DNA of 64,000 nucleotides from Escherichia coli (lineage in GTDB: Bacteria > Pseudomonadota > Gammaproteobacteria > Enterobacterales > Enterobacteriaceae), in assembly GCF_050920415.1 (NCBI RefSeq), contig NZ_CP169309.1. One strand, given 5' to 3'. A model generated the notes under the pieces. It worked only from the letters and a program-made list of their open reading frames with translations. It made no database searches and was not told the origin of the DNA. A program made the translations under genes and the position numbers. Below, piece by piece: positions 1 through 64,000 of the stretch (positions within the stretch are counted from its first letter, which is position 1; the number at the start of each line of letters is the position of its first letter).

Positions 1-41
1 TCGACGGCGGCTTAAGTATGCCGCGCTTCTGAGGCTGAATC

Positions 42-884: not shown

Positions 885-893
885 GGAATGATC

Positions 894-1670: not shown

Positions 1671-1679
1671 GGAAATTGT

Positions 1680-5299: not shown

Positions 5300-5319
5300 T
5301 ATTGCAAAGGTTAATCACT

Positions 5320-5796: not shown

Positions 5797-5818
5797 AATA
5801 AGTAGGGATGGAGAAAAC

Positions 5819-7120: not shown

Positions 7121-7172
7121 TATGCATTAACTGGCGGCACCTGCCGCCATATTTATTAGAAAAGGAACATCT

Positions 7173-8144
7173 ATGAAAATAAAAGTATCCGCTGGCATTA
7201 TCGGTGCTGTTCTTATGCTATCCGCAAGCCAGTCCTGGGCAGTAACATTAAAACTTAGCCATAATCAGGATAAATCTCATCCTGTTCATAAAGCGATGGA
7301 GTTCTTTGCGAAAAAGAGCAAAGAGTACTCTAACGGTGATATTACTATTCGTATTTATCCAAATGGAACATTGGGTACTCAACGAGAAACAATGGAGCTG
7401 ATTCGTTCTGGTGCTATTCCGCTGGTAAAAACCAATGCGGCGGAGATGGAAGCCTTCGAGAGTTCGTATAAAATATTTAGCCTGCCTTATTTGTTCCGCG
7501 ATCGTGATCATTATTATCAGGTCATGCAAGGCGATATCGGAAGGAAAATCCTCGACTCAACGAAAAGCAAAGGTTATTTCGGGCTGACTTTCTATGATGG
7601 AGGCGCCCGCAGTTTCTACGGTAATAAACCGGTACTGAAACCAGACGATCTGAAAGGCATGAAAGTCCGTGTCCAGCCAAGTCCTGGCGCAGTTGAAATG
7701 ATCAAAGTCATGGGCGGTAACCCGACGCCACTGGATTACGGCGAGCTGTATACGGCCTTACAGCAGGGCGTGGTCGATATGGCAGAAAACAGCGTGATGG
7801 CACTGACCACTATGCGTCACGGTGAAGTGGCAAAATCCTTTAGCCTTGATGAGCACACCATGGTGCCCGATGTGGTTCTGATGAGTAATGCTGCATTTGA
7901 TAAACTCAGCCCTGAAAATCAGGCAGTTATATTAAAAGCAGCGAAAGAATCGATGAGTTACATGAAGGAGTTATGGAGCGAGCAAGAGAAACAAGAATTT
8001 GCAAAACTGGATAAAATGGGCGTAAAAGTCTACCCGGTTGATAAAGCACCGTTTATCGAGAAAGTACAACCGATGTACGCAAACTTCGCTAAAGATAACC
8101 CTGCCCTTGCCCCAATGCTGGCTGATATTCAGGCGGCTAAGTAA
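7173..8144 (+). CDS. TRAP transporter periplasmic substrate-binding protein (DctP-like), 323 aa
   Basis: N-terminal signal peptide (MKIKVSAGIIGAVLMLSASQSWA), size typical of DctP-family binding proteins, AAAGGA RBS. Last gene of the operon, convergent with rplI. Confidence 0.7.
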   Translation: MKIKVSAGIIGAVLMLSASQSWAVTLKLSHNQDKSHPVHKAMEFFAKKSKEYSNGDITIRIYPNGTLGTQRETMELIRSGAIPLVKTNAAEMEAFESSYKIFSLPYLFRDRDHYYQVMQGDIGRKILDSTKSKGYFGLTFYDGGARSFYGNKPVLKPDDLKGMKVRVQPSPGAVEMIKVMGGNPTPLDYGELYTALQQGVVDMAENSVMALTTMRHGEVAKSFSLDEHTMVPDVVLMSNAAFDKLSPENQAVILKAAKESMSYMKELWSEQEKQEFAKLDKMGVKVYPVDKAPFIEKVQPMYANFAKDNPALAPMLADIQAAK

Positions 8145-8201
8145 TTACCTTCATGGGGCTGCTTATTGTGGCCCTTATCGATATCAGCAAGTGCTCGCTA
8201 T

Positions 8202-22884: not shown

Positions 22885-23544
22885 TTAACCAATAATATGA
22901 AGTGATGTCAGTGGGATATCAACACCCAGTGCGCGCGAAAATAACCACTCCGGCTCGCCGAGATCGTTAAAAGATTCCTCACCATTTAACAGCAAATATT
23001 CACAGGTATCTTCGGTCACCTGCCGTTCATAGCCCATGGTAAAATTATGCACTTCCCATTTGGCGTGGTTTTGATTTTCAACTTTTTCCAGCATATAGAC
23101 GGGTTCGATATTCCCCGGTTCTTCGCTGTTAAAAAATCGCTGCCAGCGTTTTTCCTGCCAGTTTAATGTCATTGCCCCCATCGCTTTGGCGTTGATCGCT
23201 TCGCGCCAGTGGCTCTCTTTGCTGATACCGTAGCTCTCTTCATAGACAAAGAGCTTTATATCATCAATGTCATCAATATCTTCGCCGCCGGTGGTATTGA
23301 TTTGCAGAAATTCATCGCCCGAAGTGTAGTAGCGGAAAATCTGACTACCGCCGCCCAGATCGATGTGGCTGACAGCGGCTACCGTAAATTCTTCACCCGG
23401 CAGCGCAATCAGCAATTCATCTTCCAGCAAACGAAACGCTAACGTGTCGAGCGTAAAGCCGCTATTGAGATGAAGTCCCAGCGGGCCACGTGCGGTTACA
23501 GGTTTATCATCCTTACCAAACAGACGCTTGAAAAAACTTGTCAT
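22885..23544 (-). CDS. yjfK: DUF2491-family protein YjfK
   Basis: 219-aa translation MTSFFKRLFGKDDKPVTARGPLGLHLNSGF...; start ATG overlaps the stop of the upstream channel-like gene (ATGA) with GAGGGAAG RBS. Confidence 0.9.
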   Translation of the reverse strand: MTSFFKRLFGKDDKPVTARGPLGLHLNSGFTLDTLAFRLLEDELLIALPGEEFTVAAVSHIDLGGGSQIFRYYTSGDEFLQINTTGGEDIDDIDDIKLFVYEESYGISKESHWREAINAKAMGAMTLNWQEKRWQRFFNSEEPGNIEPVYMLEKVENQNHAKWEVHNFTMGYERQVTEDTCEYLLLNGEESFNDLGEPEWLFSRALGVDIPLTSLHIIG

Positions 23545-24611
23545 ATGCTTCCCTCAATGTCCTGCCATACCACTTCTTCAGCCAAAATACGGTTATTGCC
23601 AATAAGATGCAGCCACATACCGCCTTTAACTTCCGTTGCAATGACTGGATTCAGTTCCATTCCCCTACCATTTTTACAACTGCTTATTCCCAGGACGGTG
23701 GCATCATGATGAAGTTTCATATAATGCATCAATGCGCCATAACGCATCGAGGTAACCCGTTCAGGAATCGGTAAAACAAACCCCGTATCCCCCAGCATTG
23801 GATTCATAATCGATGCCACTGATTGAGATGAACCGGGATCTTGTATTGAACGGGAAAGTTGTTCTGCTGAAATATTTCGCACTATTTCAATACGTTGACA
23901 ATGAACCTCTAATAAACGAGCGTAGCGTTCATCTTCCAGATAAGCGACGATATGGCATCTTTCAGGAATAAAATCCGCCAGGGATAGTGCGGTCGTGAAC
24001 GTCTGCTCATCTGTTTGCGAAAAGATGATGACACTTTGGCAATTTGCCAGTCCCATGCGGGTATGTTCATGCGGATCATTAAAATTACTAATACGAATGA
24101 AATCGACCCAATTATTTCCAGGCATCGGATGTTGAATATCATCCCGCTCACACAAAAGTACCCGGCCAAATGCTCTTCGGGAATCAAACAACAATAATGA
24201 AATCATCTTTTCAGTCTGATGCCCGCGCCATCCAATGACCAGCATATGGTTGCGCAAATTGCTGTAGTCGCCCATTCCCGTCATTCCTTTCGCCAATATG
24301 TCTTGCACTAATGCAATGACTTTTCCCATTAAAGCGCCAAATAAACCAACACTCACAGGAATCTGCCAGAGCGCTGTGAACAGACGTCCCCCAACCGTTT
24401 GGGGTGTGATATCACCAAACCCCAGCGTTGATCCCACAACCGAGCAGTAATAAATAAAATTACTCAGTTGACCTACCAACGCCTCTTCATGCAACGCAGT
24501 TAACACCAGATAACAAAACAGATACTGTCCTGTAAATAATCCAGTCAATGCCGGCCAGGTAAGCCTGGAAAGGTGACGTCGGCAGGTTTTAATGATCCAG
24601 GAGAAGAACAT
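23541..24611 (-). CDS. putative 2-TM potassium-channel-like protein with a C-terminal RCK/TrkA-N-like domain, 356 aa; not in the K-12 gene order as I recall it
   Basis: Uninterrupted 1071-nt ORF between yjfJ and yjfK. Contains TM1 (residues ~21-45), a pore helix and K+-selectivity-filter-like TLGFGD (residues 62-67, nt 24411-24428), TM2 (~74-100), then a Rossmann-like HMLVIGWRGHQ... segment. Start overlaps the yjfJ stop (TAATG) and stop overlaps the yjfK start (ATGA). Appears AT-richer than its neighbours. Confidence 0.75.
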   Translation of the reverse strand: MFFSWIIKTCRRHLSRLTWPALTGLFTGQYLFCYLVLTALHEEALVGQLSNFIYYCSVVGSTLGFGDITPQTVGGRLFTALWQIPVSVGLFGALMGKVIALVQDILAKGMTGMGDYSNLRNHMLVIGWRGHQTEKMISLLLFDSRRAFGRVLLCERDDIQHPMPGNNWVDFIRISNFNDPHEHTRMGLANCQSVIIFSQTDEQTFTTALSLADFIPERCHIVAYLEDERYARLLEVHCQRIEIVRNISAEQLSRSIQDPGSSQSVASIMNPMLGDTGFVLPIPERVTSMRYGALMHYMKLHHDATVLGISSCKNGRGMELNPVIATEVKGGMWLHLIGNNRILAEEVVWQDIEGSI

Positions 24612-43205: not shown

Positions 43206-43281
<76 letters not shown>

Positions 43282-43316
43282 TTGGGTGGTCTGTGCTTTG
43301 CAGCACTTTCAAATTT

Positions 43317-43392
<76 letters not shown>

Positions 43393-43602: not shown

Positions 43603-44148
43603 TTACAGCTTGATAAAATGCTCGCGGTAGTAAGCCAGTTCTGCCACCGACTCACGGATATCATCCATCGCCTGATGCGTCCCCTGCTTGGTAAAGCCGT
43701 CAAGAATTTCCGGCTTCCAGCGGCGCGCCAGCTCTTTCAGTGTGCTGACATCCAGATAACGGTAGTGGAAGTAGGCTTCCAGCTCCGGCATGTATTTAAA
43801 CAGGAAGCGACGATCCTGGCCGATGCTGTTACCGCAAATCGGCGATTTTCCCGCAGGCACCCACTGTTTTAAGAATTCGAGCGTTGCCAGTTCAGCTTCA
43901 CGATCGCCCATTGTGCTCGCTTTCACGCGCTCCACCAGCCCGCTGGCGGTATGGGTGCGCACGTTCCAGTCATCCATCAGCGCCAGCTGTTCATCAGACT
44001 GGTGTACTGCAATGGTCGGCCCTTCTGCCAGAATATTCAGGTTGGCATCGGTCACCAGCGTGGCAATCTCAATAATGCGATCGCGCTCGGGATCCAGACC
44101 GGTCATCTCAAGATCGATCCAAATCAGGTTGTTTTCATTGGCACTCAT
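43603..44148 (-). CDS. orn: oligoribonuclease
   Basis: 181-aa product starting [29 protein letters not shown]... at the ATG at 44148; the ORF-track extension is rejected. Confidence 0.95.
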
Positions 44149-44242
44149 GCTATTTTCCACCCATTCACAGTGACTATATTGATCCACAATTGCGTGTATC
44201 ATAGATGTTTTGCCCATCAGGGGCGACCAGGAGTCAGTACGA

Positions 44243-45295
44243 TTGAGTAAAAATAAACTCTCCAAAGGCCAGCAGCGCCGCGTGAACGCCAATCACCAGC
44301 GTCGTCTTAAAACGTCTAAGGAGAAGCCCGACTACGACGACAATCTGTTTGGCGAGCCTGATGAAGGTATCGTCATCAGCCGCTTTGGTATGCACGCTGA
44401 TGTGGAATCCGCCGATGGCGACGTTCACCGCTGCAATATTCGCCGTACCATCCGTTCGCTGGTGACCGGCGATCGCGTAGTCTGGCGTCCGGGTAAACCG
44501 GCGGCAGAAGGCGTAAATGTCAAAGGGATCGTGGAAGCGGTGCATGAGCGCACCTCAGTGTTGACGCGCCCGGATTTCTACGACGGTGTGAAACCCATTG
44601 CTGCCAACATCGACCAGATTGTCATTGTCTCCGCGATTTTGCCGGAGCTGTCGCTCAATATTATCGACCGTTACCTGGTGGCCTGCGAAACCTTGCAGAT
44701 TGAGCCGATTATTGTGCTCAACAAGATAGACCTGCTGGACGACGAAGGCATGGAATTCGTCAACGAGCAGATGGATATCTACCGCAATATCGGTTATCGC
44801 GTATTGATGGTTTCCAGCCATACTCAGGATGGACTGAAACCGCTGGAAGAGGCGTTGACCGGGCGCATCAGTATTTTTGCCGGGCAGTCTGGCGTCGGCA
44901 AATCCAGCCTGCTGAACGCGTTGCTGGGGCTGCAAAAAGAGATCCTGACCAACGACGTCTCGGATAACTCGGGGCTTGGTCAGCACACCACGACTGCCGC
45001 GCGGCTGTATCACTTCCCGCACGGCGGTGATGTGATTGATTCCCCAGGTGTGCGTGAGTTTGGTCTCTGGCATCTGGAACCGGAACAAATTACTCGGGGT
45101 TTTGTCGAATTCCATGACTACTTAGGTCTGTGTAAATATCGCGATTGCAAACACGATACCGATCCGGGCTGCGCTATCCGGGAAGCAGTTGAGGAAGGGA
45201 AAATCGCGGAAACCCGTTTCGAAAACTATCACCGTATTCTGGAAAGCATGGCGCAGGTAAAAACGCGTAAAAACTTTTCTGATACGGATGACTGA
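44243..45295 (+). CDS. rsgA: small-subunit ribosome biogenesis GTPase RsgA
   Basis: 350-aa product (TTG start) [23 protein letters not shown]... with CCAGGAG RBS upstream of the TTG at 44243; Walker [10 protein letters not shown]. Confidence 0.92.
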
Positions 45296-45338
45296 CAATT
45301 AAGCTAACCGTCGTTAGAATCGTCCCCTTTTTTTCAGG

Positions 45339-45358
45339 ATCCGGCATGTAGGCCGGAT
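45339..45358. repeat. REP-like palindrome between rsgA and psd
   Basis: ATCCGGCATGTAGGCCGGAT, a near-perfect palindrome with the CCGGATC-type ends of REP units. Confidence 0.45.
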
Positions 45359-45391
45359 CAGGAACGACAAAACAATGGCCTGGAGGCTACC

Positions 45392-46360
45392 TTGTTAAAT
45401 TCATTTAAACTTTCGCTACAGTACATTCTGCCGAAATTATGGCTTACTCGCCTGGCGGGTTGGGGCGCAAGCAAGCGGGCAGGATGGCTGACAAAACTGG
45501 TTATCGATCTGTTCGTTAAATACTACAAGGTCGACATGAAAGAGGCGCAAAAGCCGGACACCGCCAGCTACCGCACCTTTAACGAATTCTTTGTCCGTCC
45601 GCTGCGTGACGAAGTACGCCCAATCGATACCGATCCTAATGTACTGGTCATGCCTGCCGATGGCGTTATCAGCCAGTTAGGTAAAATCGAAGAAGATAAA
45701 ATCCTGCAAGCTAAAGGCCACAACTACAGCCTCGAAGCTCTGCTGGCAGGGAACTATCTGATGGCGGATCTTTTCCGTAACGGTACGTTTGTGACCACTT
45801 ACCTCTCTCCGCGTGACTACCACCGCGTGCACATGCCGTGCAACGGTATTCTGCGTGAGATGATCTATGTGCCGGGCGATCTCTTCTCCGTTAACCATCT
45901 CACCGCTCAGAACGTGCCGAATCTGTTTGCCCGTAACGAACGCGTGATCTGCCTGTTCGATACCGAATTTGGCACGATGGCGCAGATTCTGGTCGGGGCG
46001 ACGATTGTTGGCAGCATTGAAACTGTCTGGGCGGGCACCATTACGCCGCCGCGCGAAGGCATCATCAAGCGCTGGACCTGGCCTGCCGGAGAAAACGACG
46101 GTTCAGTGGCGCTGCTGAAAGGCCAGGAAATGGGTCGCTTTAAACTCGGCTCTACCGTTATCAACCTGTTTGCACCGGGTAAAGTTAATCTGGTTGAGCA
46201 ACTGGAAAGCCTGTCTGTCACGAAAATTGGTCAGCCGCTGGCAGTATCTACCGAAACCTTTGTTGCGCCAGACGCAGAACCTGCCCCGCTTCCTGCCGAA
46301 GAGATCGAGGCAGAACACGACGCCAGCCCATTGGTTGACGACAAAAAAGACCAGGTCTAA
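45392..46360 (+). CDS. psd: phosphatidylserine decarboxylase proenzyme
   Basis: 322-aa product [32 protein letters not shown]...; apparent TTG start at 45392 with TGGAGG RBS. Confidence 0.94.
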
Positions 46361-46381
46361 TCCATCAAAGGAAACGCTGAC

Positions 46382-49300
46382 GTGCGCCTGATTATCACTT
46401 TTCTGATGGCCTGGTGCCTCAGTTGGGGGGCGTACGCCGCGACGGCCCCCGATAGTAAACAAATCACCCAGGAACTGGAGCAGGCAAAAGCGGCGAAACC
46501 CGCGCAGCCGGAAGTCGTAGAGGCACTCCAGTCCGCCTTAAATGCGCTTGAGGAACGAAAAGGTTCCCTTGAGCGCATCAAGCAATATCAAGAAGTCATT
46601 GATAATTACCCGAAACTTTCCGCTACTCTGCGCGCGCAATTAAACAACATGCGTGACGAGCCGCGCAGCGTATCGCCGGGAATGTCTACCGACGCGCTGA
46701 ATCAGGAAATTCTCCAGGTCAGCAGCCAGTTGCTGGATAAGAGCCGTCAGGCCCAGCAGGAACAGGAACGTGCCCGCGAGATTGCCGATTCGCTGAATCA
46801 ATTACCGCAACAGCAAACCGACGCTCGCCGTCAGTTGAATGAAATCGAGCGGCGGCTGGGAACACTTACCGGCAATACCCCGCTTAATCAGGCACAAAAT
46901 TTCGCGTTGCAATCTGACTCTGCACGACTGAAGGCGCTCGTTGATGAACTGGAATTGGCGCAGCTGTCTGCCAATAACCGCCAGGAATTAGCGCGTTTAC
47001 GCTCAGAGCTGGCGGAAAAAGAGAGCCAGCAGCTGGATGCATATTTGCAGGCCTTGCGTAATCAGTTGAACAGCCAACGTCAGCTTGAGGCGGAGCGGGC
47101 GCTGGAAAGCACCGAACTTCTGGCGGAAAACAGTGCCGATTTGCCGAAAGATATCGTCGCGCAATTCAAAATTAACCGCGAGCTGTCGGCGGCGTTGAAT
47201 CAACAGGCGCAGCGGATGGATCTCGTTGCCTCGCAACAGCGTCAGGCTGCCAGCCAGACGTTACAGGTCCGGCAGGCGTTGAATACGCTGCGTGAACAAT
47301 CACAATGGCTGGGATCGTCCAACCTACTCGGTGAAGCGTTGCGGGCGCAGGTGGCACGGCTGCCGGAAATGCCAAAACCACAACAGCTTGATACCGAAAT
47401 GGCGCAGTTGCGTGTGCAACGGTTACGTTATGAGGATCTGCTCAATAAACAGCCGCTGCTACGGCAAATCCATCAGGCAGACGGTCAGCCGCTGACCGCC
47501 GAGCAAAACCGTATTCTGGAAGCACAGCTACGCACTCAGCGTGAGTTGCTGAACTCATTGTTGCAGGGTGGTGACACGTTACTGCTGGAGCTGACCAAGT
47601 TGAAAGTCTCCAACGGGCAACTGGAAGATGCGCTGAAAGAAGTGAATGAAGCGACGCACCGCTACCTGTTCTGGACTTCTGACGTGCGCCCGATGACCAT
47701 CGCCTGGCCGCTGGAGATCGCTCAGGATCTGCGTCGTCTCATTTCGCTGGACACCTTCAGTCAGTTGGGCAAAGCCAGCGTAATGATGCTGACCAGCAAA
47801 GAGACGATTTTGCCGCTGTTTGGCGCGTTGATTCTGGTCGGTTGCAGTATTTACTCACGCCGCTATTTCACCCGTTTTCTTGAACGTTCGGCGGCGAAAG
47901 TCGGCAAAGTGACTCAGGATCACTTCTGGCTGACGTTGCGCACCCTTTTCTGGTCGATTCTCGTCGCATCACCGCTACCGGTGCTGTGGATGACGCTGGG
48001 TTACGGCTTGCGCGAGGCGTGGCCTTATCCGCTGGCGGTCGCAATTGGTGATGGCGTAACGGCCACCGTACCGCTGCTGTGGGTAGTGATGATTTGCGCC
48101 ACCTTTGCCCGTCCGAACGGCTTGTTTATCGCTCATTTCGGCTGGCCACGCGAACGGGTTTCCCGGGGGATGCGTTACTACCTGATGAGCATCGGGCTTA
48201 TTGTGCCGCTGATTATGGCGCTGATGATGTTCGATAACCTCGACGACCGTGAATTCTCCGGTTCGCTGGGACGGCTTTGTTTTATCCTCATTTGCGGTGC
48301 GCTGGCGGTGGTCACCCTCAGCCTGAAAAAGGCCGGCATTCCGTTGTATCTCAACAAAGAAGGCAGCGGCGACAACATTACCAACCATATGCTGTGGAAC
48401 ATGATGATTGGCGCGCCGTTGGTTGCCATTCTGGCGTCGGCGGTGGGTTATCTGGCAACGGCGCAGGCGCTGTTAGCGAGGCTTGAAACCTCGGTTGCCA
48501 TCTGGTTCCTGCTACTGGTGGTTTATCACGTTATCCGCCGCTGGATGCTGATCCAACGCCGCAGGCTGGCGTTTGACCGGGCGAAGCATCGCCGGGCAGA
48601 GATGTTAGCGCAGCGTGCGCGTGGCGAAGAGGAAGCGCATCATCACAGTAGCCCGGAAGGGGCAATTGAAGTCGATGAAAGTGAAGTCGATCTCGATGCC
48701 ATCAGTGCACAATCCTTGCGGCTGGTGCGCTCAATCCTGATGTTGATCGCCCTACTTTCAGTCATTGTGCTGTGGTCAGAAATCCATTCCGCTTTCGGCT
48801 TCCTCGAAAATATTTCGCTGTGGGATGTCACTTCCACGGTACAGGGCGTGGAAAGCCTGGAGCCGATTACCCTCGGTGCGGTGCTAATTGCCATTCTGGT
48901 GTTTATCATCACCACGCAGCTGGTGCGCAACCTGCCCGCGCTGCTGGAACTGGCGATTTTGCAGCACCTCGATTTAACGCCGGGTACCGGCTACGCCATC
49001 ACCACCATCACCAAATATCTATTGATGCTGATTGGCGGGCTGGTAGGTTTCTCGATGATTGGTATTGAGTGGTCGAAATTACAGTGGCTGGTCGCCGCGC
49101 TCGGTGTTGGTCTGGGCTTTGGTTTGCAGGAAATTTTCGCCAACTTTATCTCTGGCCTGATCATCCTGTTCGAAAAACCGATTCGCATTGGCGATACGGT
49201 GACGATCCGCGATCTCACCGGTAGTGTGACGAAAATTAACACCCGCGCCACCACCATCAGCGACTGGGACCGCAAAGAAATTATCGTGCCGAACAAGGCG

Positions 49301-49705
49301 TTTATTACCGAGCAGTTTATCAACTGGTCGCTCTCTGACTCGGTCACGCGCGTGGTGTTGACGATTCCGGCCCCTGCCGATGCCAACAGTGAAGAAGTGA
49401 CGGAAATCCTGCTCACCGCAGCGCGTCGCTGCTCGCTGGTGATCGACAACCCGGCGCCGGAAGTCTTCCTGGTGGATCTGCAGCAGGGGATTCAGATTTT
49501 CGAGCTGCGTATTTACGCCGCTGAGATGGGTCACCGTATGCCGCTACGCCATGAGATCCACCAGCTGATTCTGGCTGGCTTCCACGCCCACGGTATCGAT
49601 ATGCCATTCCCGCCCTTCCAGATGCGTCTGGAAAGCCTCAACGGTAAACAAACGGGGAGAACATTAACTTCTGCGGGCAAAGGTCGTCAGGCAGGAAGTT
49701 TGTAA
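46382..49705 (+). CDS. mscM: miniconductance mechanosensitive channel MscM (YjeP)
   Basis: 1107-aa product with signal peptide, long Gln-rich coiled-coil periplasmic region, multi-TM domain and MscS-like C-terminal domain; GTG start at 46382 with AAGGA RBS. Confidence 0.94.
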   Translation: MRLIITFLMAWCLSWGAYAATAPDSKQITQELEQAKAAKPAQPEVVEALQSALNALEERKGSLERIKQYQEVIDNYPKLSATLRAQLNNMRDEPRSVSPGMSTDALNQEILQVSSQLLDKSRQAQQEQERAREIADSLNQLPQQQTDARRQLNEIERRLGTLTGNTPLNQAQNFALQSDSARLKALVDELELAQLSANNRQELARLRSELAEKESQQLDAYLQALRNQLNSQRQLEAERALESTELLAENSADLPKDIVAQFKINRELSAALNQQAQRMDLVASQQRQAASQTLQVRQALNTLREQSQWLGSSNLLGEALRAQVARLPEMPKPQQLDTEMAQLRVQRLRYEDLLNKQPLLRQIHQADGQPLTAEQNRILEAQLRTQRELLNSLLQGGDTLLLELTKLKVSNGQLEDALKEVNEATHRYLFWTSDVRPMTIAWPLEIAQDLRRLISLDTFSQLGKASVMMLTSKETILPLFGALILVGCSIYSRRYFTRFLERSAAKVGKVTQDHFWLTLRTLFWSILVASPLPVLWMTLGYGLREAWPYPLAVAIGDGVTATVPLLWVVMICATFARPNGLFIAHFGWPRERVSRGMRYYLMSIGLIVPLIMALMMFDNLDDREFSGSLGRLCFILICGALAVVTLSLKKAGIPLYLNKEGSGDNITNHMLWNMMIGAPLVAILASAVGYLATAQALLARLETSVAIWFLLLVVYHVIRRWMLIQRRRLAFDRAKHRRAEMLAQRARGEEEAHHHSSPEGAIEVDESEVDLDAISAQSLRLVRSILMLIALLSVIVLWSEIHSAFGFLENISLWDVTSTVQGVESLEPITLGAVLIAILVFIITTQLVRNLPALLELAILQHLDLTPGTGYAITTITKYLLMLIGGLVGFSMIGIEWSKLQWLVAALGVGLGFGLQEIFANFISGLIILFEKPIRIGDTVTIRDLTGSVTKINTRATTISDWDRKEIIVPNKAFITEQFINWSLSDSVTRVVLTIPAPADANSEEVTEILLTAARRCSLVIDNPAPEVFLVDLQQGIQIFELRIYAAEMGHRMPLRHEIHQLILAGFHAHGIDMPFPPFQMRLESLNGKQTGRTLTSAGKGRQAGSL

Positions 49706-49735
49706 GGTCTTTGTGGCCGGATGAACCCATCCGGC

Positions 49736-50050
49736 TCACAAGCAAAACTGATAGCGCAGAAAAAACTGCCACAACCAGTAGCCGAAAATAGCCAGGGCGG
49801 TGGCGTACATAAACCAGCCGCGTTTTTTTCGCCACAAAGCGAACCAGAGAAAAGGGAAAAAGAGCGGTAACGTCATTATCACACCGACATCGCGAGTATC
49901 GTCATCTTCGAGATACATCAAAACATCACAGACGTTGTTAATCCCGCGTCCATCAATCATCCACTCTTTGTCCAGCGCGGAGGTAATGGTTATCCAGAGG
50001 AACGCCACAATGAACCAGATGCAGCACAAGACAAACATGCGCGCACTCAT
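49736..50050 (-). CDS. yjeO: inner-membrane protein YjeO
   Basis: 104-aa hydrophobic ORF MSARMFVLCCIWFIVAFLWITITSALDKEWMIDGRG... Confidence 0.88.
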   Translation of the reverse strand: MSARMFVLCCIWFIVAFLWITITSALDKEWMIDGRGINNVCDVLMYLEDDDTRDVGVIMTLPLFFPFLWFALWRKKRGWFMYATALAIFGYWLWQFFLRYQFCL

Positions 50051-50147
50051 GAGATAATCGGTCGCTTAATTTCGCTATAGCGCATACGAAATCCCGCTAA
50101 TTCCCTGTCATTGCGCCCTATCGTCAGGCAGACGATAGGGCATCGGG

Positions 50148-51650
50148 TTATTCCACCGCCCACTGCGGATTTTTTGCCACTCTGCTGCAATAGTTCTGGT
50201 AAATCGCCATCGCTAACAGCGAGAAGAAGACAGGGCCGCCAATCATCCACAATGTGCTGTCCCAGTCTCCGGCTTCAACCACAGGTTGAATGATGGTGAA
50301 GACGTTCGCAAATGTCACCACCAGTACGACAACCACTGTCGCAATCATTGCCGACATATGTGTTTTGAAAATCACAAACGGTCTGTCGAGATCCTGACGT
50401 GCTTTAAAGAACGGGAAAGCCAGTGCAAGGAACAGGTAAGGAAGCGTCATAGACACGTTCGCCATCAGCGTTAGCTTGTTAAAGAATGCCGATGCGGTGC
50501 CACCACCAAACGAAACCAGCAGGATGAAGACAGTAACCAACCCGCACTGCATCCACATGGCGATAGACGGCATGCCCATCGCATTCAGCCGCGTCATCGG
50601 TTCCGGCCACAACGCTTTCGGCGTCCCCTGGATGATAGCTTTCAACGGTGAATAGCAAAGCGTAAAGAACGCGCCAGTGTAAGCGAGGAACATCGAAAGC
50701 CCGGTAATACGCGCAAACCATACACCCAGCGACAATGACGCTTCAGGTGACAAATGCAGTGCGTTACCCAGCGTCAACCCGAGGCTCTTCATCAGCACAT
50801 AGGTAATATTGCCAAGGTTAACGGAACCATTACTTAATACCTGCTGCCAGTTTGTGCTGACGCCCCATAAAAATATTGCCAGCGAATAACCGATTGAAAT
50901 AACAATAGCGGCAAAAACAATACCTTTGGCAAAGTTCTTTTCTGGATTTTCCGTTTTATCGACCAGACCACCAACCGCTTCAATTCCGCCATAGGCAAAA
51001 ATAGCAAATACCACAAACGATAGCATTGCCAGACCGGACTGATAACCTGGATTCGGTGATGTCAGGAAATTAATATCCTGCGCGAAATGCCCACCATTTA
51101 ATAACAAAATAGTAATGCTTACTAACAGCAATACTAAATTAAGACACATTACTGCAATACCGCCCACCGCAGTAATACGGGCAATTTTATTAATCCCTTT
51201 TGAAGCAACGACGGTGACCAGAATCATCCATGCCACTGCCAGCAGACCAACCACCTGCGTAGGTTCCAGTCCGGCAATACGCCAGTGCTGGGTCATGTCG
51301 CTACCGTAGAGAAATGTTGAGAACGGTACCCAAACTTTCGCGGAGGTGCTCACCATCCAGATGATATAAGAGGAAAACCACATAAACGTACCAATGAAGG
51401 CAAAACGTGGTCCGACACTATTATTCATCCAGGAATAGATACCGCCTTCTTCTTTGCGATACGCAGCGCCCATTTCAGCCATCATTAAGGCGAATGGAAT
51501 AAAGAATAACAATGCAGAAAATATATAAAAGGGAATCGCACTATAACCCATTAAGTAATAAGCCGATGGGCTATTGGCAAATCCAAATACAGAAGTAAAG
51601 ATCATCAATATGAGCCCTATCAGACTCATCTTTTTTATCGTGTGAGGCAT
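50148..51650 (-). CDS. yjeM: APC-family amino-acid transporter YjeM
   Basis: 500-aa polytopic membrane protein starting MPHTIKKMSLIGLILMIFTSVFGF... at the ATG at 51650. Confidence 0.93.
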   Translation of the reverse strand: MPHTIKKMSLIGLILMIFTSVFGFANSPSAYYLMGYSAIPFYIFSALLFFIPFALMMAEMGAAYRKEEGGIYSWMNNSVGPRFAFIGTFMWFSSYIIWMVSTSAKVWVPFSTFLYGSDMTQHWRIAGLEPTQVVGLLAVAWMILVTVVASKGINKIARITAVGGIAVMCLNLVLLLVSITILLLNGGHFAQDINFLTSPNPGYQSGLAMLSFVVFAIFAYGGIEAVGGLVDKTENPEKNFAKGIVFAAIVISIGYSLAIFLWGVSTNWQQVLSNGSVNLGNITYVLMKSLGLTLGNALHLSPEASLSLGVWFARITGLSMFLAYTGAFFTLCYSPLKAIIQGTPKALWPEPMTRLNAMGMPSIAMWMQCGLVTVFILLVSFGGGTASAFFNKLTLMANVSMTLPYLFLALAFPFFKARQDLDRPFVIFKTHMSAMIATVVVVLVVTFANVFTIIQPVVEAGDWDSTLWMIGGPVFFSLLAMAIYQNYCSRVAKNPQWAVE

Positions 51651-51869
51651 GAAACCATCCTTCATTTCAGCGCGTGTCTAAAACGCGCCCACTGAACTGC
51701 ACTACCCTATCATTGAGTGGGCAGCGTAAAAACCAATACAGAATTGATACCTGGATGATATCAAATATCCAGTCTTAAATTGTGGCCTTTAGCGGAAAAA
51801 TGAAAACATATGCTACAGAATGGCGCTCATCACGCCATTCTTCGCGGTTAATTCAGTAATTTTTCAGAA

Positions 51870-52847
51870 TTATGCCCGGTCAACGCTAAAGGCGATGACT
51901 TCAGCCAGTGTCTCCGCACCCAGCGCCAACATCACCAGACGATCAACGCCTAATGCCACGCCGGAACAGTCAGGCATACCGACTTTCAAGGCTTCAATAA
52001 GATTCTCGTCAATGGGGTGCTGCGGCAAACCGCGCGCCGCGCGCTTACGGTTATCTTGTTCAAAACGTTGTTGCTGCTCACGGGCATCCGTCAATTCATG
52101 GAAACCATTCGCCAGCTCAATACCTTTATAATAAACCTCAAAGCGTTCAGCGACCCGATGATCTTCGGTACTGATTTGCGCCAGTGATGCCTGGCTGGCC
52201 GGAAAGTGGTACACAAAGGTCGGTTTTTCTTTGCCAATATTTGGCTCTACGCCAAAGGTAAACAGCAGTTGTAGCAGCGTGTCGCGGTCTTCTTCGGTAT
52301 CGGCAACGTTGCTCAAATCCAGTTTCGCTGCCACTTCCCGCAGTTGCGTTTTGTCGGCAGAGAGCGGGTCAATTTCCAGATAACGCAAGAAAGCTTGTTG
52401 ATAAGAAAGACTTTCTGCTGCCGGGCAGTCCAGCACCTGTTGCAAGAGATCGTCCACCTCGTTCATCAACCGGTACATATCATAGTGCGGTCGATACCAC
52501 TCAAGCATAGTGAACTCAGGGTTGTGATAACGCCCCATCTCTTCATTACGGAAGCTGCGGCACAGCTGGAATACCGGCCCACAACCGGCAACCAGCAGGC
52601 GTTTCATGTGGTATTCCGGGCTGGTCATTAACCAGAGATTCATCCCCTGCGAATGCCCGGGGCCAACGAAACGCGTCTCAAACGGGACCAAATGAATATC
52701 GGTTACCGTCGCCTGGCTCATACAAGGCGTCTCCACCTCCAGCACTCCACGATCGGCAAAGAAACGACGGATCTCCGCCATAATCGCCGCGCGTTTTAAT
52801 AAGTTAGGAATGGATGCGCTCGGCTGCCAGGATGCCGTTTCGCTCAT
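51870..52847 (-). CDS. epmA: EF-P lysine-34 lysyltransferase EpmA (PoxA)
   Basis: 325-aa class-II LysRS-like product starting [41 protein letters not shown]... at the ATG at 52847. Confidence 0.94.
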
Positions 52848-53025
52848 AGTTAAATCTCCATTTTTTGACAAGGGCACGAAGTCTACTCGCAACGCGGCGG
52901 CAAGACAAATTTTACGCAGGTATCAATCAACGGTGGGCGGTGACTAAAAAAAGCACGATCTGATGGTTTAGTAATTAAATTAATCATCTTCAGTGATAAT
53001 TTAGCCCTCTTGCGCACTAAAAAAA

Positions 53026-53039
53026 TCGATCTCGTCAAA
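53026..53039 (+). promoter_or_regulatory. FNR binding site of the frdABCD promoter
   Basis: TCGATCTCGTCAAA matches the FNR consensus TTGAT-N4-ATCAA and is centred about 41 bp upstream of the predicted start site; a -10-like TATACT lies at 53061-53066. Confidence 0.7.
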
Positions 53040-53171
53040 TTTCAGACTTATCCATCAGACTATACTGTTGTACCTATAAAGGAGCAGTGGAATAGCGTTC
53101 GCAGACCGTAACTTTCAGGCACTTACCCTGAAGTACGGGGCTGTGGGATAAAAACAATCTGGAGGAATGTC

Positions 53172-54972
53172 GTGCAAACCTTTCAAGCCGATCTTGCCAT
53201 TGTAGGCGCCGGTGGCGCGGGATTACGTGCTGCAATTGCTGCCGCGCAGGCAAATCCAAATGCAAAAATCGCACTAATCTCAAAAGTATACCCTATGCGT
53301 AGCCATACCGTTGCTGCAGAAGGGGGCTCCGCCGCTGTCGCGCAGGATCATGACAGCTTCGAATATCACTTTCACGATACAGTAGCGGGTGGCGACTGGT
53401 TGTGTGAGCAGGATGTCGTGGATTATTTCGTCCACCACTGCCCAACCGAAATGACCCAACTGGAACTGTGGGGATGCCCATGGAGCCGTCGCCCGGATGG
53501 TAGCGTCAACGTACGTCGCTTCGGCGGCATGAAAATCGAGCGTACCTGGTTCGCCGCCGATAAGACCGGCTTCCATATGCTGCACACGCTGTTCCAGACC
53601 TCTCTGCAATTCCCGCAGATCCAGCGTTTTGACGAACATTTCGTGCTGGATATTCTGGTTGATGATGGTCATGTTCGCGGCCTGGTAGCAATGAACATGA
53701 TGGAAGGCACGCTGGTGCAGATCCGTGCTAACGCGGTCGTTATGGCTACCGGCGGTGCAGGTCGCGTTTATCGTTACAACACCAACGGCGGCATCGTTAC
53801 CGGTGACGGTATGGGTATGGCGCTAAGCCACGGCGTTCCGCTGCGTGACATGGAATTCGTTCAATATCACCCAACTGGTCTGCCAGGTTCCGGTATCCTG
53901 ATGACCGAAGGCTGCCGCGGTGAAGGCGGTATTCTGGTCAACAAAAATGGCTACCGTTATCTGCAAGATTACGGCATGGGTCCGGAAACTCCACTGGGCG
54001 AGCCGAAAAACAAATATATGGAACTGGGTCCACGCGACAAAGTTTCTCAGGCCTTCTGGCACGAATGGCGTAAAGGCAACACCATCTCCACACCGCGTGG
54101 CGATGTGGTTTATCTCGACCTGCGTCACCTCGGCGAGAAAAAACTGCATGAACGTCTGCCGTTCATCTGCGAACTGGCGAAAGCGTACGTTGGCGTCGAT
54201 CCGGTTAAAGAACCGATTCCAGTACGTCCGACCGCACACTACACCATGGGCGGTATCGAAACCGATCAGAACTGTGAAACCCGCATTAAAGGTCTGTTCG
54301 CCGTGGGTGAATGTTCCTCTGTTGGTCTGCACGGCGCAAACCGTCTGGGCTCCAACTCCCTGGCGGAACTGGTGGTCTTCGGTCGTCTGGCCGGTGAACA
54401 AGCGACAGAACGTGCAGCAACTGCCGGTAATGGCAACGAAGCGGCAATTGAAGCGCAGGCAGCTGGCGTTGAACAACGTCTGAAAGATCTGGTTAACCAG
54501 GATGGCGGCGAAAACTGGGCGAAGATCCGCGACGAAATGGGCCTGGCAATGGAAGAAGGTTGCGGTATCTACCGTACGCCGGAACTGATGCAGAAAACCA
54601 TCGACAAGCTGGCTGAGCTACAGGAACGCTTCAAGCGCGTGCGCATCACCGACACCTCCAGCGTGTTCAACACCGACCTGCTCTACACCATTGAACTGGG
54701 CCACGGTCTGAACGTTGCTGAATGTATGGCGCACTCTGCAATGGCACGTAAAGAGTCTCGCGGCGCGCACCAGCGCCTGGACGAAGGTTGCACCGAGCGT
54801 GACGACGTCAACTTCCTCAAACACACCCTCGCCTTCCGCGATGCTGATGGCACTACTCGCCTGGAGTACAGCGACGTGAAGATTACTACGCTGCCGCCAG
54901 CTAAACGCGTTTACGGTGGCGAAGCGGATGCAGCCGATAAGGCGGAAGCAGCCAATAAGAAGGAGAAGGCGA

Positions 54973-54980
<8 letters not shown>
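53172..54980 (+). CDS. frdA: fumarate reductase flavoprotein subunit
   Basis: 602-aa product (GTG start, GGAGGA RBS) [29 protein letters not shown]... Confidence 0.97.
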
Positions 54981-56113
<1,133 letters not shown>

Positions 56114-56123
56114 GGAGCCTGAG

Positions 56124-57679
<1,556 letters not shown>

Positions 57680-57690
57680 AATTTCATCGG

Positions 57691-57713
57691 GTCCGAATTT
57701 TCGGACATTTTTC
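57691..57713 (+). terminator. rho-independent terminator of ampC
   Basis: Stem GTCCGA/TCGGAC with a 4-nt loop (57691-57706), followed by ATTTTT. Confidence 0.75.
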
Positions 57714-57768
57714 TCCGCTTTTCCTTGCTGTCATCTACACTTAGAAAAAAACCAGTAAGGAAACATTT

Positions 57769-58302
57769 ATGCGCCTGCTCCCTCTCGTTGCCGCAGCGAC
57801 AGCTGCATTCCTGGTCGTTGCCTGCAGTTCTCCTACGCCGCCGCGTGGCGTGACAGTAGTGAATAATTTCGACGCCAAACGTTATCTCGGTACCTGGTAT
57901 GAGATTGCCCGTTTTGATCACCGCTTTGAACGTGGACTGGAAAAAGTCACCGCAACATACAGTCTGCGGGATGATGGCGGCCTGAATGTCATTAATAAAG
58001 GCTATAATCCTGACAGAGAAATGTGGCAGCAGAGTGAAGGGAAAGCGTACTTTACCGGCGCACCAACTCGCGCTGCGCTGAAAGTGTCATTCTTTGGTCC
58101 TTTCTATGGCGGTTATAACGTTATTGCACTCGATCGGGAATACCGCCATGCGCTGGTTTGCGGCCCGGACCGCGACTACCTGTGGATACTCTCCCGCACG
58201 CCAACCATTTCTGACGAAGTGAAACAGGAAATGCTGGCAGTCGCGACCCGGGAAGGGTTTGATGTCAGTAAGTTTATTTGGGTACAGCAGCCCGGTAGTT
58301 AG
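57769..58302 (+). CDS. blc: outer-membrane lipocalin Blc
   Basis: 177-aa ORF with lipoprotein signal peptide (LVVACSS lipobox) [35 protein letters not shown]... Confidence 0.95.
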
Positions 58303-58616
58303 TGAGTGCTGAGTTTCAGACCAATAATCCCCAATACGATTAACGCCAGGCTCGCCAGGCGCATCGGGTTAGCGGACTCACCGAGCAGCACAATACCGGT
58401 GATGGCCGCGCCGACTGCGCCAATACCCGTCCACACGGCATAAGCTGTCCCTACTGGTAACGATTTCATCGCCCAGGCAAGTAGCGCCATACTGACAATC
58501 ATCGCCGTCACGGTAATAACACTTGGCGTCAAACGACTAAAGCCGTGGGTATATTTCAGGCCAACGGCCCATACCACTTCCAGCAGGCCAGCAATAACTA
58601 AGATAATCCAGGACAT
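58299..58616 (-). CDS. gdx: SMR-family guanidinium exporter Gdx (SugE)
   Basis: 105-aa product starting [26 protein letters not shown]... at the ATG at 58616 (GGAG RBS); convergent 4-nt overlap with blc. The ORF-track N-terminal extension is actually the riboswitch leader. Confidence 0.94.
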
Positions 58617-58634
58617 ATCAGGCTCCGGAGAATT

Positions 58635-58677
58635 GGGGCCGTCCCCGGTGAAAAGAGGCGTTTGCAGGTCGTCCTGC
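58635..58677 (-). promoter_or_regulatory. guanidine-II riboswitch (mini-ykkC motif) in the gdx leader
   Basis: Two tandem hairpins with ACGR loops on the minus-strand RNA: GCAGG-ACGA-CCUGC (58664-58677) and GGGG-ACGG-CCCC (58635-58646), separated by 17 nt and sitting just upstream of the gdx RBS. Confidence 0.8.
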
Positions 58678-58748
58678 AAAGCTGATGGTTGAACGGGTAT
58701 TTTGCCAGGTGGCAGGGGAATTTCAACTATTACCTTAGTGACTATCGC

Positions 58749-58783
58749 AAAAAAACAAACGGCACGACACAGCTGTCGTACCG
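58749..58783 (-). terminator. rho-independent terminator downstream of ecnB
   Basis: Stem CGGCACGACA/TGTCGTACCG with one mismatch (58760-58769 and 58774-58783), followed on the minus strand by a U-run (plus-strand A-run 58749-58756). Confidence 0.7.
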
Positions 58784-58790
58784 TTATTGC

Positions 58791-58937
58791 TTATTGCTGT
58801 GCTTTTGTTGCTGCACCAGAAATCGCGTTACCGCCATCAGAGATATCTTCACCAACGCCACGCGTGGTGTTGCAGGCAGTTAATACTGTTGAAAGCACCA
58901 GAACAGAAAAGATCGCTGCAATTGTCTTCTTCACCAT
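58791..58937 (-). CDS. ecnB: entericidin B (bacteriolytic small lipoprotein)
   Basis: Hand-translated 48-aa [51 protein letters not shown] with lipobox LTAC; absent from the ORF track (shorter than its cutoff). Confidence 0.9.
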
Positions 58938-59047
58938 AACGTCTTCCTTTTAGGTAATGTTATTTATGTTTGCCTATAGCAAATTAATAATAGACAACAT
59001 CGCCAAAAATGATGGAAATCTGATGATTTTTCGGAAGAGAAGAAAAA

Positions 59048-59173
59048 TTAGCTGGCAGCGCGGGAGATGGAGTTGCCGAGATGTTTGATATCTTCGCCGA
59101 AACCGCGAGCGGTGTTACAGCCCGTGAGCAGCGTGCTGGCAAGCAAAACAAGAACGATAAGGCGTTTCATCAT
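59048..59173 (-). CDS. ecnA: entericidin A (antidote small lipoprotein)
   Basis: Hand-translated 41-aa [44 protein letters not shown] with lipobox LTGC; absent from the ORF track. Confidence 0.9.
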
Positions 59174-59228
59174 CTCTGACCAGAATAAGTGAGTGATGGT
59201 GCAGCCAACAGGCCGCACCAAAACCGCA

Positions 59229-59795
59229 TTACTTCACGCGAGAGACGTATTCACCAGAGCGGGTATCCACTTTGATGACTTCGCCGATCTGCACGAACAG
59301 CGGAACTTTAACCACAGCGCCAGTAGACAGGGTAGCCGGTTTGCCGCCAGTACCTGCGGTATCCCCTTTCAGGCCTGGATCGGTATCAACGATTTCCAGT
59401 TCAACAAAGTTCGGCGGAGTAACGGAGATCGGCTGACCATTCCACAGAGTTACGATACACTCTGCCTGATCCAGCAACCATTTAGCGTTGTCGCCAATTG
59501 CTTTTGCATCAGCAGACAGTTGCTCGAAAGTTTCGTTGTTCATGAAGTGCCAGAACTCACCGTCGTTGTACAGGTAAGTCAGGTTCATATCGACAACATC
59601 AGCGCCTTCAGCGGAATCAGTAGATTTGAAGGTTTTTTCTACGCGAGTACCGGTCAGCAGACGACGCAGTTTAACGCGAGCAAATGCCTGGCCTTTACCC
59701 GGTTTTACGAATTCACTCGCTTCAACCGCGTAAGGTTCGCCGTCTAACATGATTTTAAGACCAGCACGAAAATCGTTGCTATAGTACGTTGCCAT
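59229..59795 (-). CDS. efp: elongation factor P
   Basis: 188-aa translation [46 protein letters not shown]... (Lys34 modification site in KPGKGQA). Confidence 0.97.
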
Positions 59796-59836
59796 AAGGC
59801 CCTCTGAAATTTGTTAATTGGTAGCTAAGCCACAAA

Positions 59837-60865
59837 ATGGCGCATATTGTAACCCTAAATACCCCATCCAGAGAAGATTGGTTAACGCAACTTGCCGATG
59901 TTGTGACCGATCCTGATGAACTTCTGCGTCTTTTGAATATAGACGCGGACGAAAAACTGTTGGCCGGACGCAGCGCCAAAAAGCTGTTTGCCCTGCGTGT
60001 TCCCCGCTCATTTATCGATCGCATGGAGAAAGGCAATCCGGACGATCCACTTTTGCGTCAGGTACTTACCTCGCAAGATGAGTTTGTCGTCGCGCCCGGA
60101 TTCTCCACCGACCCGCTGGAAGAACAGCACAGCGTAGTGCCTGGTTTGTTGCATAAATACCACAACCGGGCGCTATTGCTGGTCAAAGGCGGCTGTGCGG
60201 TAAATTGCCGTTATTGCTTTCGTCGCCATTTCCCGTATGCCGAAAATCAGGGCAACAAGCGAAACTGGCAGACGGCACTTGAGTATGTTGCAGCGCATCC
60301 GGAACTGGACGAGATGATTTTCTCCGGCGGCGATCCGCTGATGGCGAAAGATCACGAGCTGGACTGGTTGCTCACACAACTGGAAGCCATCCCGCATATC
60401 AAACGTCTGCGGATTCACAGCCGTCTGCCGATTGTGATCCCGGCACGCATCACAGATGCGCTGGTCGAACGCTTTTCACATTCTACGCTGCAAATCTTGC
60501 TGGTGAATCACATCAACCATGCCAATGAGGTAGATGAAACATTCCGCCAGGCGATGGCTAAGTTGCGCCGGGTAGGCGTTACTTTGCTGAACCAGAGCGT
60601 TCTGTTACGTGGTGTGAACGATAACGCACAAACGCTGGCAAACCTGAGTAATGCGTTGTTCGATGCGGGCGTGATGCCGTATTACCTGCATGTGCTCGAT
60701 AAAGTACAGGGCGCGGCGCATTTTATGGTGAGTGATGACGAAGCACGGCAGATTATGCGTGAGCTGCTGACGCTGGTATCTGGATATATGGTGCCGAAAC
60801 TGGCGCGCGAGATTGGCGGCGAACCCAGCAAAACGCCGCTGGATCTCCAGCTACCCCAGCAGTAA
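59837..60865 (+). CDS. epmB: EF-P beta-lysylation enzyme EpmB (lysine 2,3-aminomutase-like radical SAM protein)
   Basis: 342-aa translation with radical-SAM CxxxCxxC motif (CAVNCRYCFRRH); divergent from efp. Confidence 0.95.
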   Translation: MAHIVTLNTPSREDWLTQLADVVTDPDELLRLLNIDADEKLLAGRSAKKLFALRVPRSFIDRMEKGNPDDPLLRQVLTSQDEFVVAPGFSTDPLEEQHSVVPGLLHKYHNRALLLVKGGCAVNCRYCFRRHFPYAENQGNKRNWQTALEYVAAHPELDEMIFSGGDPLMAKDHELDWLLTQLEAIPHIKRLRIHSRLPIVIPARITDALVERFSHSTLQILLVNHINHANEVDETFRQAMAKLRRVGVTLLNQSVLLRGVNDNAQTLANLSNALFDAGVMPYYLHVLDKVQGAAHFMVSDDEARQIMRELLTLVSGYMVPKLAREIGGEPSKTPLDLQLPQQ

Positions 60866-61099
60866 CTGATTAAACAGGGAAGTTTAATCTTTGCACGTTG
60901 CATAACCTTTAATTATTCATATACATTGCTGTTATTACTTTTTATATAACCAACACCAATAATTAACCTTTCTTTTCTGTTTATATAGAGTGAGCACGGC
61001 TATTTATGTTATTTTAACAACTATTACTACCAAGCCCATTTATCTGGCTTATAAATTAAAATTAATTATTTAATTGAGAAATGGTTAGGGAGAACCTAC

Positions 61100-61969
61100 A
61101 TGGCCATAAGCATCAAGGGTGTTAATACCGGTGTTATTCGCAAGAGTAATAATTTCATTGCACTGGCGCTGAAAATTAAAGAGCCTCGCAATAAAGAATC
61201 GTTGTTCTTTCTGTCTGTCATGGAACTGCGCGACCTGCTGATTGCGCTGGAAAGCCGTCTGCATCAAAAGCATAAACTGGATGCTGCAGCACGCCTTCAG
61301 TATGAGCAAGCTCGCGATAAAGTCATTAAGAAAATGGCAGAAAATATCCCAGAAATTCTGGTTGATGAGCTTAAAAATGCCGATATTAATCGTCGAGTTA
61401 ACACGCTGGAACTTACCGATAATCAGGGTGAAAATCTTACCTTCGTATTAACGCTACATGACGGTAGCAAATGTGAGTTAGTCATCAATGAGTTGCAGAT
61501 TGAAATGCTGGCGCGAGCAATCATTCATGCAATTAATAATGCGGAAATGCGTGAACTGGCATTACGTATTACCTCACTGTTAGATTTCCTGCCGTTATAC
61601 GACGTTGACTGCCAGGACAATGGCAATCTGGAATATGACACCTATTCCCAACCAGAATGGAAACATAACTTGTTCAACCATTATCTGGCAGTGCTTTATC
61701 GCTTTAAAGATGAAAATGGCAAAGAGCAATTTAGCGGCGCGGTGGTGAAAACGCGTGAAGCAACGCCGGGTAAAGAAGTGGAGGCGATCACTCGCCGAAT
61801 GCTTGATTTCAGCCCTAGACTGAAAAAACTCGCGGGTGTGCCATGTCAGGTCTATGTTCGCACCGTAGCGGCAAATAACACCCAACCGCTAACCCAGGAT
61901 CAATGCTTACGCGCGCTGCATCACTTACGTGTTCAGTCCATCAGCAAAAGTGCACCACAAGCGAAATAA
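61100..61969 (+). CDS. yjeJ: uncharacterized protein YjeJ
   Basis: 289-aa ORF MAISIKGVNTGVIRKSNNFIALALKIKEPRNKESLFF...; AT-rich gene preceded by a very AT-rich 234-bp intergenic region. Confidence 0.88.
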   Translation: MAISIKGVNTGVIRKSNNFIALALKIKEPRNKESLFFLSVMELRDLLIALESRLHQKHKLDAAARLQYEQARDKVIKKMAENIPEILVDELKNADINRRVNTLELTDNQGENLTFVLTLHDGSKCELVINELQIEMLARAIIHAINNAEMRELALRITSLLDFLPLYDVDCQDNGNLEYDTYSQPEWKHNLFNHYLAVLYRFKDENGKEQFSGAVVKTREATPGKEVEAITRRMLDFSPRLKKLAGVPCQVYVRTVAANNTQPLTQDQCLRALHHLRVQSISKSAPQAK

Positions 61970-62018
61970 TCTCATCTTTGCTAATGCGAGGCTGGAGTCA
62001 TCCAGCCTCTGAATCACA

Positions 62019-62372
62019 TCAATTCGGGCACTTATATACCTGGCCGATAATCTGGCTATCCGTCGGGACAAAACTGGACAACATTCCCTGCGACGGGCTG
62101 CTGATACCATAAATCACGTTACCACCCATTGCCGCTGCCTGGTTGCGCAGATCGTTTGCCGCACCACGCATAGAACCGCCTTCTTCACCGTGTTGCCCGG
62201 AAAGCCAGTTACTTTGCTTACCTGTCGCAGTACCAATCAACTGGCACTCTGCGCCTGGCTGCTCGTCCACAATGCGTACACTCTGACCGGCAGCACTCAA
62301 TTCGTTGCTGGAGCTACAACCCGCCATCAGTAGCGCGGCACCGACAATCCCTGCTAAGTATTTTACGTGCAT
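62019..62372 (-). CDS. yjeI: lipoprotein YjeI (DUF4156)
   Basis: 117-aa product starting MHVKYLAGIVGAALLMAGCSSSN... (lipobox LMAGC) at the ATG at 62372. Confidence 0.9.
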   Translation of the reverse strand: MHVKYLAGIVGAALLMAGCSSSNELSAAGQSVRIVDEQPGAECQLIGTATGKQSNWLSGQHGEEGGSMRGAANDLRNQAAAMGGNVIYGISSPSQGMLSSFVPTDSQIIGQVYKCPN

Positions 62373-62446
62373 GTTATTCCCCATAATCAATGAGCTGGAC
62401 GCCACTCGCGTCGTCCGTGTCTGAATCTTATACTAGAAAGATGACC

Positions 62447-62480
62447 AAAAGAAAAACCCCCAGACATTTCTGCCCGGGGG
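62447..62480 (-). terminator. rho-independent terminator of the groES-groEL operon
   Basis: GC-rich hairpin (CCCCCAG ... CTG-CCC-GGGGG, 62457-62480) followed on the minus strand by a U-rich tract (plus-strand AAAAGAAAAA, 62447-62456), directly after the groL stop codon. Confidence 0.75.
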
Positions 62481-62509
62481 TTTGTTTATTTCTGCGAGGT
62501 GCAGGGCAA

Positions 62510-64000
<1,491 letters not shown>

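Follow-up and report, generated by a model that had tools for sequence, protein, structure and literature searches.

The chromosomal entericidin locus of Escherichia coli K-12 MG1655 holds two genes, ecnA (b4410), whose product is named "entericidin A lipoprotein, antidote to entericidin B", and ecnB (b4411), whose product is named "bacteriolytic entericidin B lipoprotein". The toxin/antidote label reportedly rests on one over-expression study, Bishop et al. 1998 (J Mol Biol 280:583). The ecnB gene of K-12 is read from a promoter ("ecnB P") that is used by the sigma-38 RNA polymerase and poorly recognised by sigma-70, with an overlapping OmpR site (PMC5389655). Expression is induced in stationary phase by sigma-S and repressed by OmpR (PMC5389655; PMC12529367; bioRxiv 10.1101/2025.05.13.653802), and osmotic induction has been reported as well (bioRxiv 10.1101/2025.05.13.653802). 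Repression of the ecnB mRNA by MicA has been demonstrated experimentally in E. coli K-12 (PMC3551931). Both the abundance of EcnB and its link to RpoS have been described (PMC12529367); EcnA is absent from the small proteins reported in the same study (PMC12529367).

Small lipobox proteins from other Proteobacteria that have been assigned to the entericidin family include Atu8019 of Agrobacterium, EcnB of Enterobacter sp. C6-6, and EcnAB of Xanthomonas citri (PMC7296081). Atu8019 is encoded by a single gene; the protein is surface-exposed, associated with OMVs, non-lytic, and has a role in vesicle docking (PMC7296081). EcnB of Enterobacter sp. C6-6, in the account given by PMC7296081, is secreted and acts as a bacteriolytic factor. 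Neither of these reported roles matches the toxin/antidote model of K-12 (PMC7296081).

In this study, a stretch of E. coli DNA of 64,000 nucleotides (hereafter the window, always at its full length) was analysed. It had been predicted to encode, on its minus strand, two small lipoproteins of 41 and 48 amino acids with the lipoboxes LTGC and LTAC and the common core NT(A/T)RG(F/V)GEDI, and these had been assigned to entericidins A and B. Reading of the sequence together with the list of open reading frames (ORFs) bore out the genes and their positions (Table 1), and the lipoboxes and the core are present as claimed.

Table 1. Features of the entericidin locus and of other parts of the window (positions are those of the window).
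Feature	Position	Strand	Basis or remark
ecnA coding sequence, 41 aa + stop	59173..59048	minus	ATG at 59173
ecnB coding sequence, 48 aa + stop	58937..58791	minus	ORF list and sequence reading
Post-efp hairpin GGUGCGGCC-UGUU-GGCUGCACC, 9-10 bp	59219..59198	minus	strong by folding; no U-tract after it
Tandem 4-bp duplication, CACTCACT where other E. coli have CACT	59188-59191	minus	alignment
ecnA-ecnB spacer, 110 nt	59047..58938	minus	holds the sigma-S ecnB promoter in K-12
Candidate -10 element C-TATTAT	58993..58987	minus	placement inferred from the description in PMC5389655
Candidate -10-like sigma-38 pause element TGCTATAGG	58981..58973	minus	placement inferred from the description in PMC5389655
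ecnB Shine-Dalgarno AAGGAAG	58949..58943	minus	good, -5.6 kcal/mol
Predicted MicA pairing site, ecnB codons 1-11	58936..58906	minus	RNAduplex
ecnB intrinsic terminator, 12-pair stem, 4-nt loop, T-run	58785..58748	minus	scan and folding
sugE/gdx promoter-like site	58726..58699	minus	consensus scan
Guanidine-II (mini-ykkC) riboswitch, RF01068	58680..58634	minus	50.4 bits, gathering score 32
Two tRNA-Gly(GCC) genes, 35 nt apart	43206-43392	minus	
RpsF leader, RF02893	9693-9777	minus	110.1 bits; 5' of rpsF-priB-rpsR-rplI, as expected
Accessory gene block adjoining rplI	1-8150	plus	

The window almost certainly carries an intact, standard-type copy of the chromosomal entericidin locus ecnAB of E. 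coli. The original prediction had been made to hang on uninterrupted reading frames and on a peptide comparison with entericidins. Both reading frames are intact, and the comparison gave 100% protein identity of EcnA to its K-12 MG1655 counterpart (b4410) and of EcnB to b4411. The Pfam family PF08085 was matched by EcnA with 26.4 bits and by EcnB with 30.2 bits (gathering score 23.3), and profile positions 1-20 of 20 were covered by both proteins. EcnA scored 114.9 bits against the NCBIfam equivalog for the lipoprotein antitoxin entericidin A (NF007319; cut-off 86, positions 1-41 of 41), and EcnB scored 121.9 bits against that for the lipoprotein toxin entericidin B (NF007487; cut-off 94, positions 1-48 of 48). 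Cross-scores were much lower: 44.5 bits for EcnA on the EcnB model and 46.5 bits for EcnB on the EcnA model. The coding sequences of ecnA and ecnB together differ from those of K-12 at seven nucleotides, and all seven differences are synonymous, which is the pattern expected for translated genes under purifying selection. The assignment to entericidins A and B is thus supported by identity to K-12, by PF08085, by NF007319 and NF007487, and by conserved synteny, and no observation speaks against it. The finding is correct but ordinary, the pair having been described since 1998 and being already known.

The EcnA precursor consists of an 18-residue signal peptide ending in the LTGC lipobox (Cys19) and a mature peptide of 23 residues; in EcnB the signal peptide has 21 residues, the LTAC lipobox places the cysteine at position 22, and the mature peptide has 27 residues. 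Both lipoboxes agree with L-x-[GA]-C and are preceded by a basic n-region and a hydrophobic core. The two mature peptides are identical at 15 of 23 residues, including the common core. Helical hydrophobic moments calculated at 100 degrees were 0.617 for EcnA and 0.431 for EcnB, as compared with shuffle means of 0.21 and 0.16, and the observed values, which are a computed property, were reached by at most 0.02% of 5000 shuffles. Both mature peptides would be strongly amphipathic if helical. PDB sequence searches with EcnA and EcnB found no solved structure of any relative.

By analogy with the established lipoprotein pathway, the precursors would be exported by Sec, receive a diacylglyceryl group from Lgt, be cleaved before the cysteine by LspA, and be N-acylated by Lnt. 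Asp at residue +2 is a retention signal of lipoproteins. The +2 residue here is Asn, not Asp, so sorting to the outer membrane is likely, and the mature peptides would probably be passed to the Lol pathway and on to the outer membrane. PMC12529367 quotes UniProt curation as asserting lipidation of EcnB at Cys22.

The gene order around the locus is epmB / efp-ecnA-ecnB-sugE(gdx) / blc-ampC, the same as in K-12 and in two other annotated genomes. In the window, efp (59795..59229) is followed by ecnA, ecnB, and sugE (58616..58299), with ecnA and ecnB lying as tandem paralogues on one strand. With a 701-base query the locus was detected in 5425 of the 5426 complete genomes of E. coli, which makes ecnA and ecnB core genes. 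K-12 MG1655 shares with the window the gene order, the 110-nt spacer between the two genes, the terminator, the flanking efp and sugE/gdx genes, and the MicA target. Apart from the seven synonymous changes, the window and K-12 differ at one base of the ecnA-ecnB spacer (59016) and at a few flanking positions, and of the two only the window has four duplicated base pairs between efp and ecnA. The nearest complete genome is that of E. coli MFDS1022581 (NZ_CP169399.1; ecnA WP_000977757.1, ecnB WP_000239596.1). Between positions 44000 and 64000 the window differs from this genome by two SNPs (49755 and 56819) and one indel, the 4-bp duplication. Over the 20 kb around ecnAB, one of 5426 complete genomes was at least 99% identical to the window, and the others were 95-99% identical. 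Judged from positions 44000-64000 and 1-8200 of the window, the lineage of E. coli to which the source strain belongs has been sparsely sampled.

The spacer upstream of ecnB differs from that of K-12 at one of 110 bases, a T at 59016 in place of C. As this lone change lies upstream of the -10 region, the promoter elements should be retained. With the candidate elements placed as in Table 1, transcription of ecnB would start near 58981-58979. A sigma-70 consensus scan found no match in the spacer, which fits the poor recognition of ecnB P by sigma-70 that has been reported. No match to an OmpR-like tandem AACAT-N5-AACAT was found in the window; two copies of AACAT are present downstream of the promoter, 4 nt apart. 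No insertion sequence or amplification was found at the ecnB promoter and ORF region (window positions ~58791-59047).

MicA is a sigma-E dependent sRNA. Nucleotides 1-28 of K-12 MicA, from its 5' domain, were predicted by RNAduplex to pair with the 5' region of ecnB at -24.2 kcal/mol; 500 shuffled targets gave -12.5 +/- 2.9 kcal/mol, and none of them reached the observed value. The target in the window is identical to that of K-12, and MicA targeting is predicted in the source strain also. The original prediction had noted a clean terminator after ecnB, and this was confirmed: the stem (58785..58758) is followed by TGTTTTTTTG, and the structure has a folding energy of -21.4 kcal/mol (z = -4.55 against shuffles).

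The expression signals of ecnA are weaker than those of ecnB. No sigma-70-like promoter was detected 5' of ecnA in the consensus scan, and Shine-Dalgarno pairing was weak (-2.2 to -2.9 kcal/mol). The only terminator-like site that the consensus scan detected there overlaps the efp stop and is weak, with 6 pairs (59241..59224). The strong hairpin that follows efp is probably a leaky terminator or an RNA stabiliser that lets efp transcripts enter ecnA. Most ecnA transcripts would then arise by read-through from efp, and their translation would be low. A longer form of ecnA, encoding 57 amino acids from a TTG at 59221, was offered by the ORF list and was rejected in favour of the annotated start, ATG 59173. 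The TTG adjoins the efp stop, the extension crosses the post-efp hairpin, and the frame exists only by virtue of the 4-bp duplication; moreover, the NF007319 model aligns over its full length from the ATG.

The original prediction also gave EcnB as bacteriolytic and EcnA as its antidote. This is the published label, derived from the over-expression work of 1998, but it has been questioned by later work. If the label is taken at its word, ecnAB would be a genuine toxin-antitoxin or programmed-death module, in which EcnB kills in stationary phase unless neutralised by EcnA. Over-production of EcnB is reported to cause lysis, which ecnA in cis counteracts (Bishop et al. 1998, as summarised in PMC5389655 and PMC7296081), and PMC7296081 also cites an EcnB homologue, secreted by Enterobacter C6-6, as bacteriolytic against Flavobacterium. 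The RefSeq product names, "lipoprotein toxin" and "lipoprotein antitoxin", are in line with such a module. However, the Keio deletion of ecnA is viable, and the Agrobacterium protein of the entericidin family is neither lytic nor pore-forming (PMC7296081). EcnB ranks with the most abundant small proteins and, in minimal medium, has been reported at up to ~70,000 copies per cell with no lysis (PMC12529367). The weaker ribosome-binding site of ecnA and its lack of a promoter-like site of its own are the opposite of what an antitoxin made in excess would have, and PADLOC defence models gave no match at E <= 0.1 for either protein. We consider a toxin-antitoxin module of this kind doubtful on these grounds; given the viable ecnA deletion and the abundance of EcnB in healthy cells, the pair is not filed here as a proven toxin-antitoxin system.

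Our reading is that EcnA and EcnB do not form a classical addiction module. EcnB would be a membrane-active lipopeptide of the envelope, abundant and induced by stress, that lyses cells only when over-produced, and EcnA a low-level paralogue that tempers it. The choice between a true toxin-antidote pair and a stress-induced pair of envelope lipopeptides is a family-wide question, to which the window adds only the 4-bp variant.

This duplication is the lone unusual feature of the locus. The four extra bases sit 15-18 nt 5' of the ecnA ATG, in the interval after the post-efp hairpin, and their placement is ambiguous within 59188-59196. An 86-base query matched 5396 complete E. coli genomes, not one of which has the duplication; the best identity was 95.3% (82 of 86 bases), and E. 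coli MFDS1022581 is without it. The duplication allele also had no match in metagenome_contigs, in an exact-pattern scan run without a positive control; the count over 5396 genomes is the stronger evidence. The duplication is probably a neutral slippage event, or else an artefact of sequencing or assembly. An effect on read-through into ecnA or on its translation, with a shift of the EcnA:EcnB balance in the source strain, has in its favour this absence from complete genomes, the position of the duplication between the hairpin and the weak Shine-Dalgarno region, and the greater distance of the U-rich UUAUUCU from the hairpin upstream of it (10 nt in place of 6). We regard such an effect as improbable, however, since neither the hairpin nor the stretch from -14 to the ATG is altered, the predicted folds are nearly isoenergetic (-32.4 vs -31.6 kcal/mol), and neutral slippage or an assembly error could account for the change. 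Should the effect be real, the allele would be a natural variant for testing whether EcnA tempers EcnB at native expression.

It had further been claimed that the pair was missed by the ORF track. This is true of the track, through its length cut-off, but ecnA and ecnB are present in the RefSeq/PGAP annotation of all records inspected. Short ORFs are common by chance, with 19 ORFs of 20 aa or longer overlapping the surrounding 1 kb (58500-59500), and the case for ecnA and ecnB rests on comparisons, not on the ORFs themselves. That the two are chance ORFs or decayed remnants, and unexpressed, could be argued from how little shortness alone tells in such a region, but this is next to impossible given full protein identity to K-12, scores above the curated family cut-offs, differences that are synonymous without exception, a good ribosome-binding site and a terminator at ecnB, and the repeated detection of EcnB in E. 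coli by mass spectrometry (PMC12529367). The K-12 identity, the family scores and the synonymous-only differences lead us to take ecnA and ecnB as real genes. Few small proteins of E. coli are detected as often as EcnB. Genuine and abundant small proteins of this sort are lost from view when an ORF track has a length floor, and short ORFs with a lipobox merit a systematic check.

Several other features of the window were recorded. A guanidine-II riboswitch with two ACGR-loop hairpins lies directly 5' of sugE/gdx (ATG 58616) and after a promoter-like site; such a layout is known for this guanidinium exporter gene. Two tRNA-Gly genes are present where K-12 has three (glyV, glyX, and glyY). E. 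coli MFDS1022581 likewise has two, but with an extra 121-bp element between them that is lacking in the window; this element is presumably ERIC-like.

In the psp-like yjfIJKLMC cluster of MFDS1022581, a gene for a "potassium channel family protein" is annotated between yjfK and yjfJ. By offset from its position on the side of that genome (23473-24543), the gene would lie at ~23540-24610 of the window, on the minus strand. K-12 presumably has no gene between yjfK and yjfJ.

The accessory block at the start of the window encodes a sugar-phosphate isomerase, an enoyl-CoA hydratase, a CoA transferase, an FAD-dependent oxidoreductase, and a three-gene TRAP transporter. We take it to lie outside the K-12 layout. 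Of 5426 complete E. coli genomes, only 1445 have the block at full length; identity to the window is mostly 90-95%, and it is 99% or more in only two genomes.
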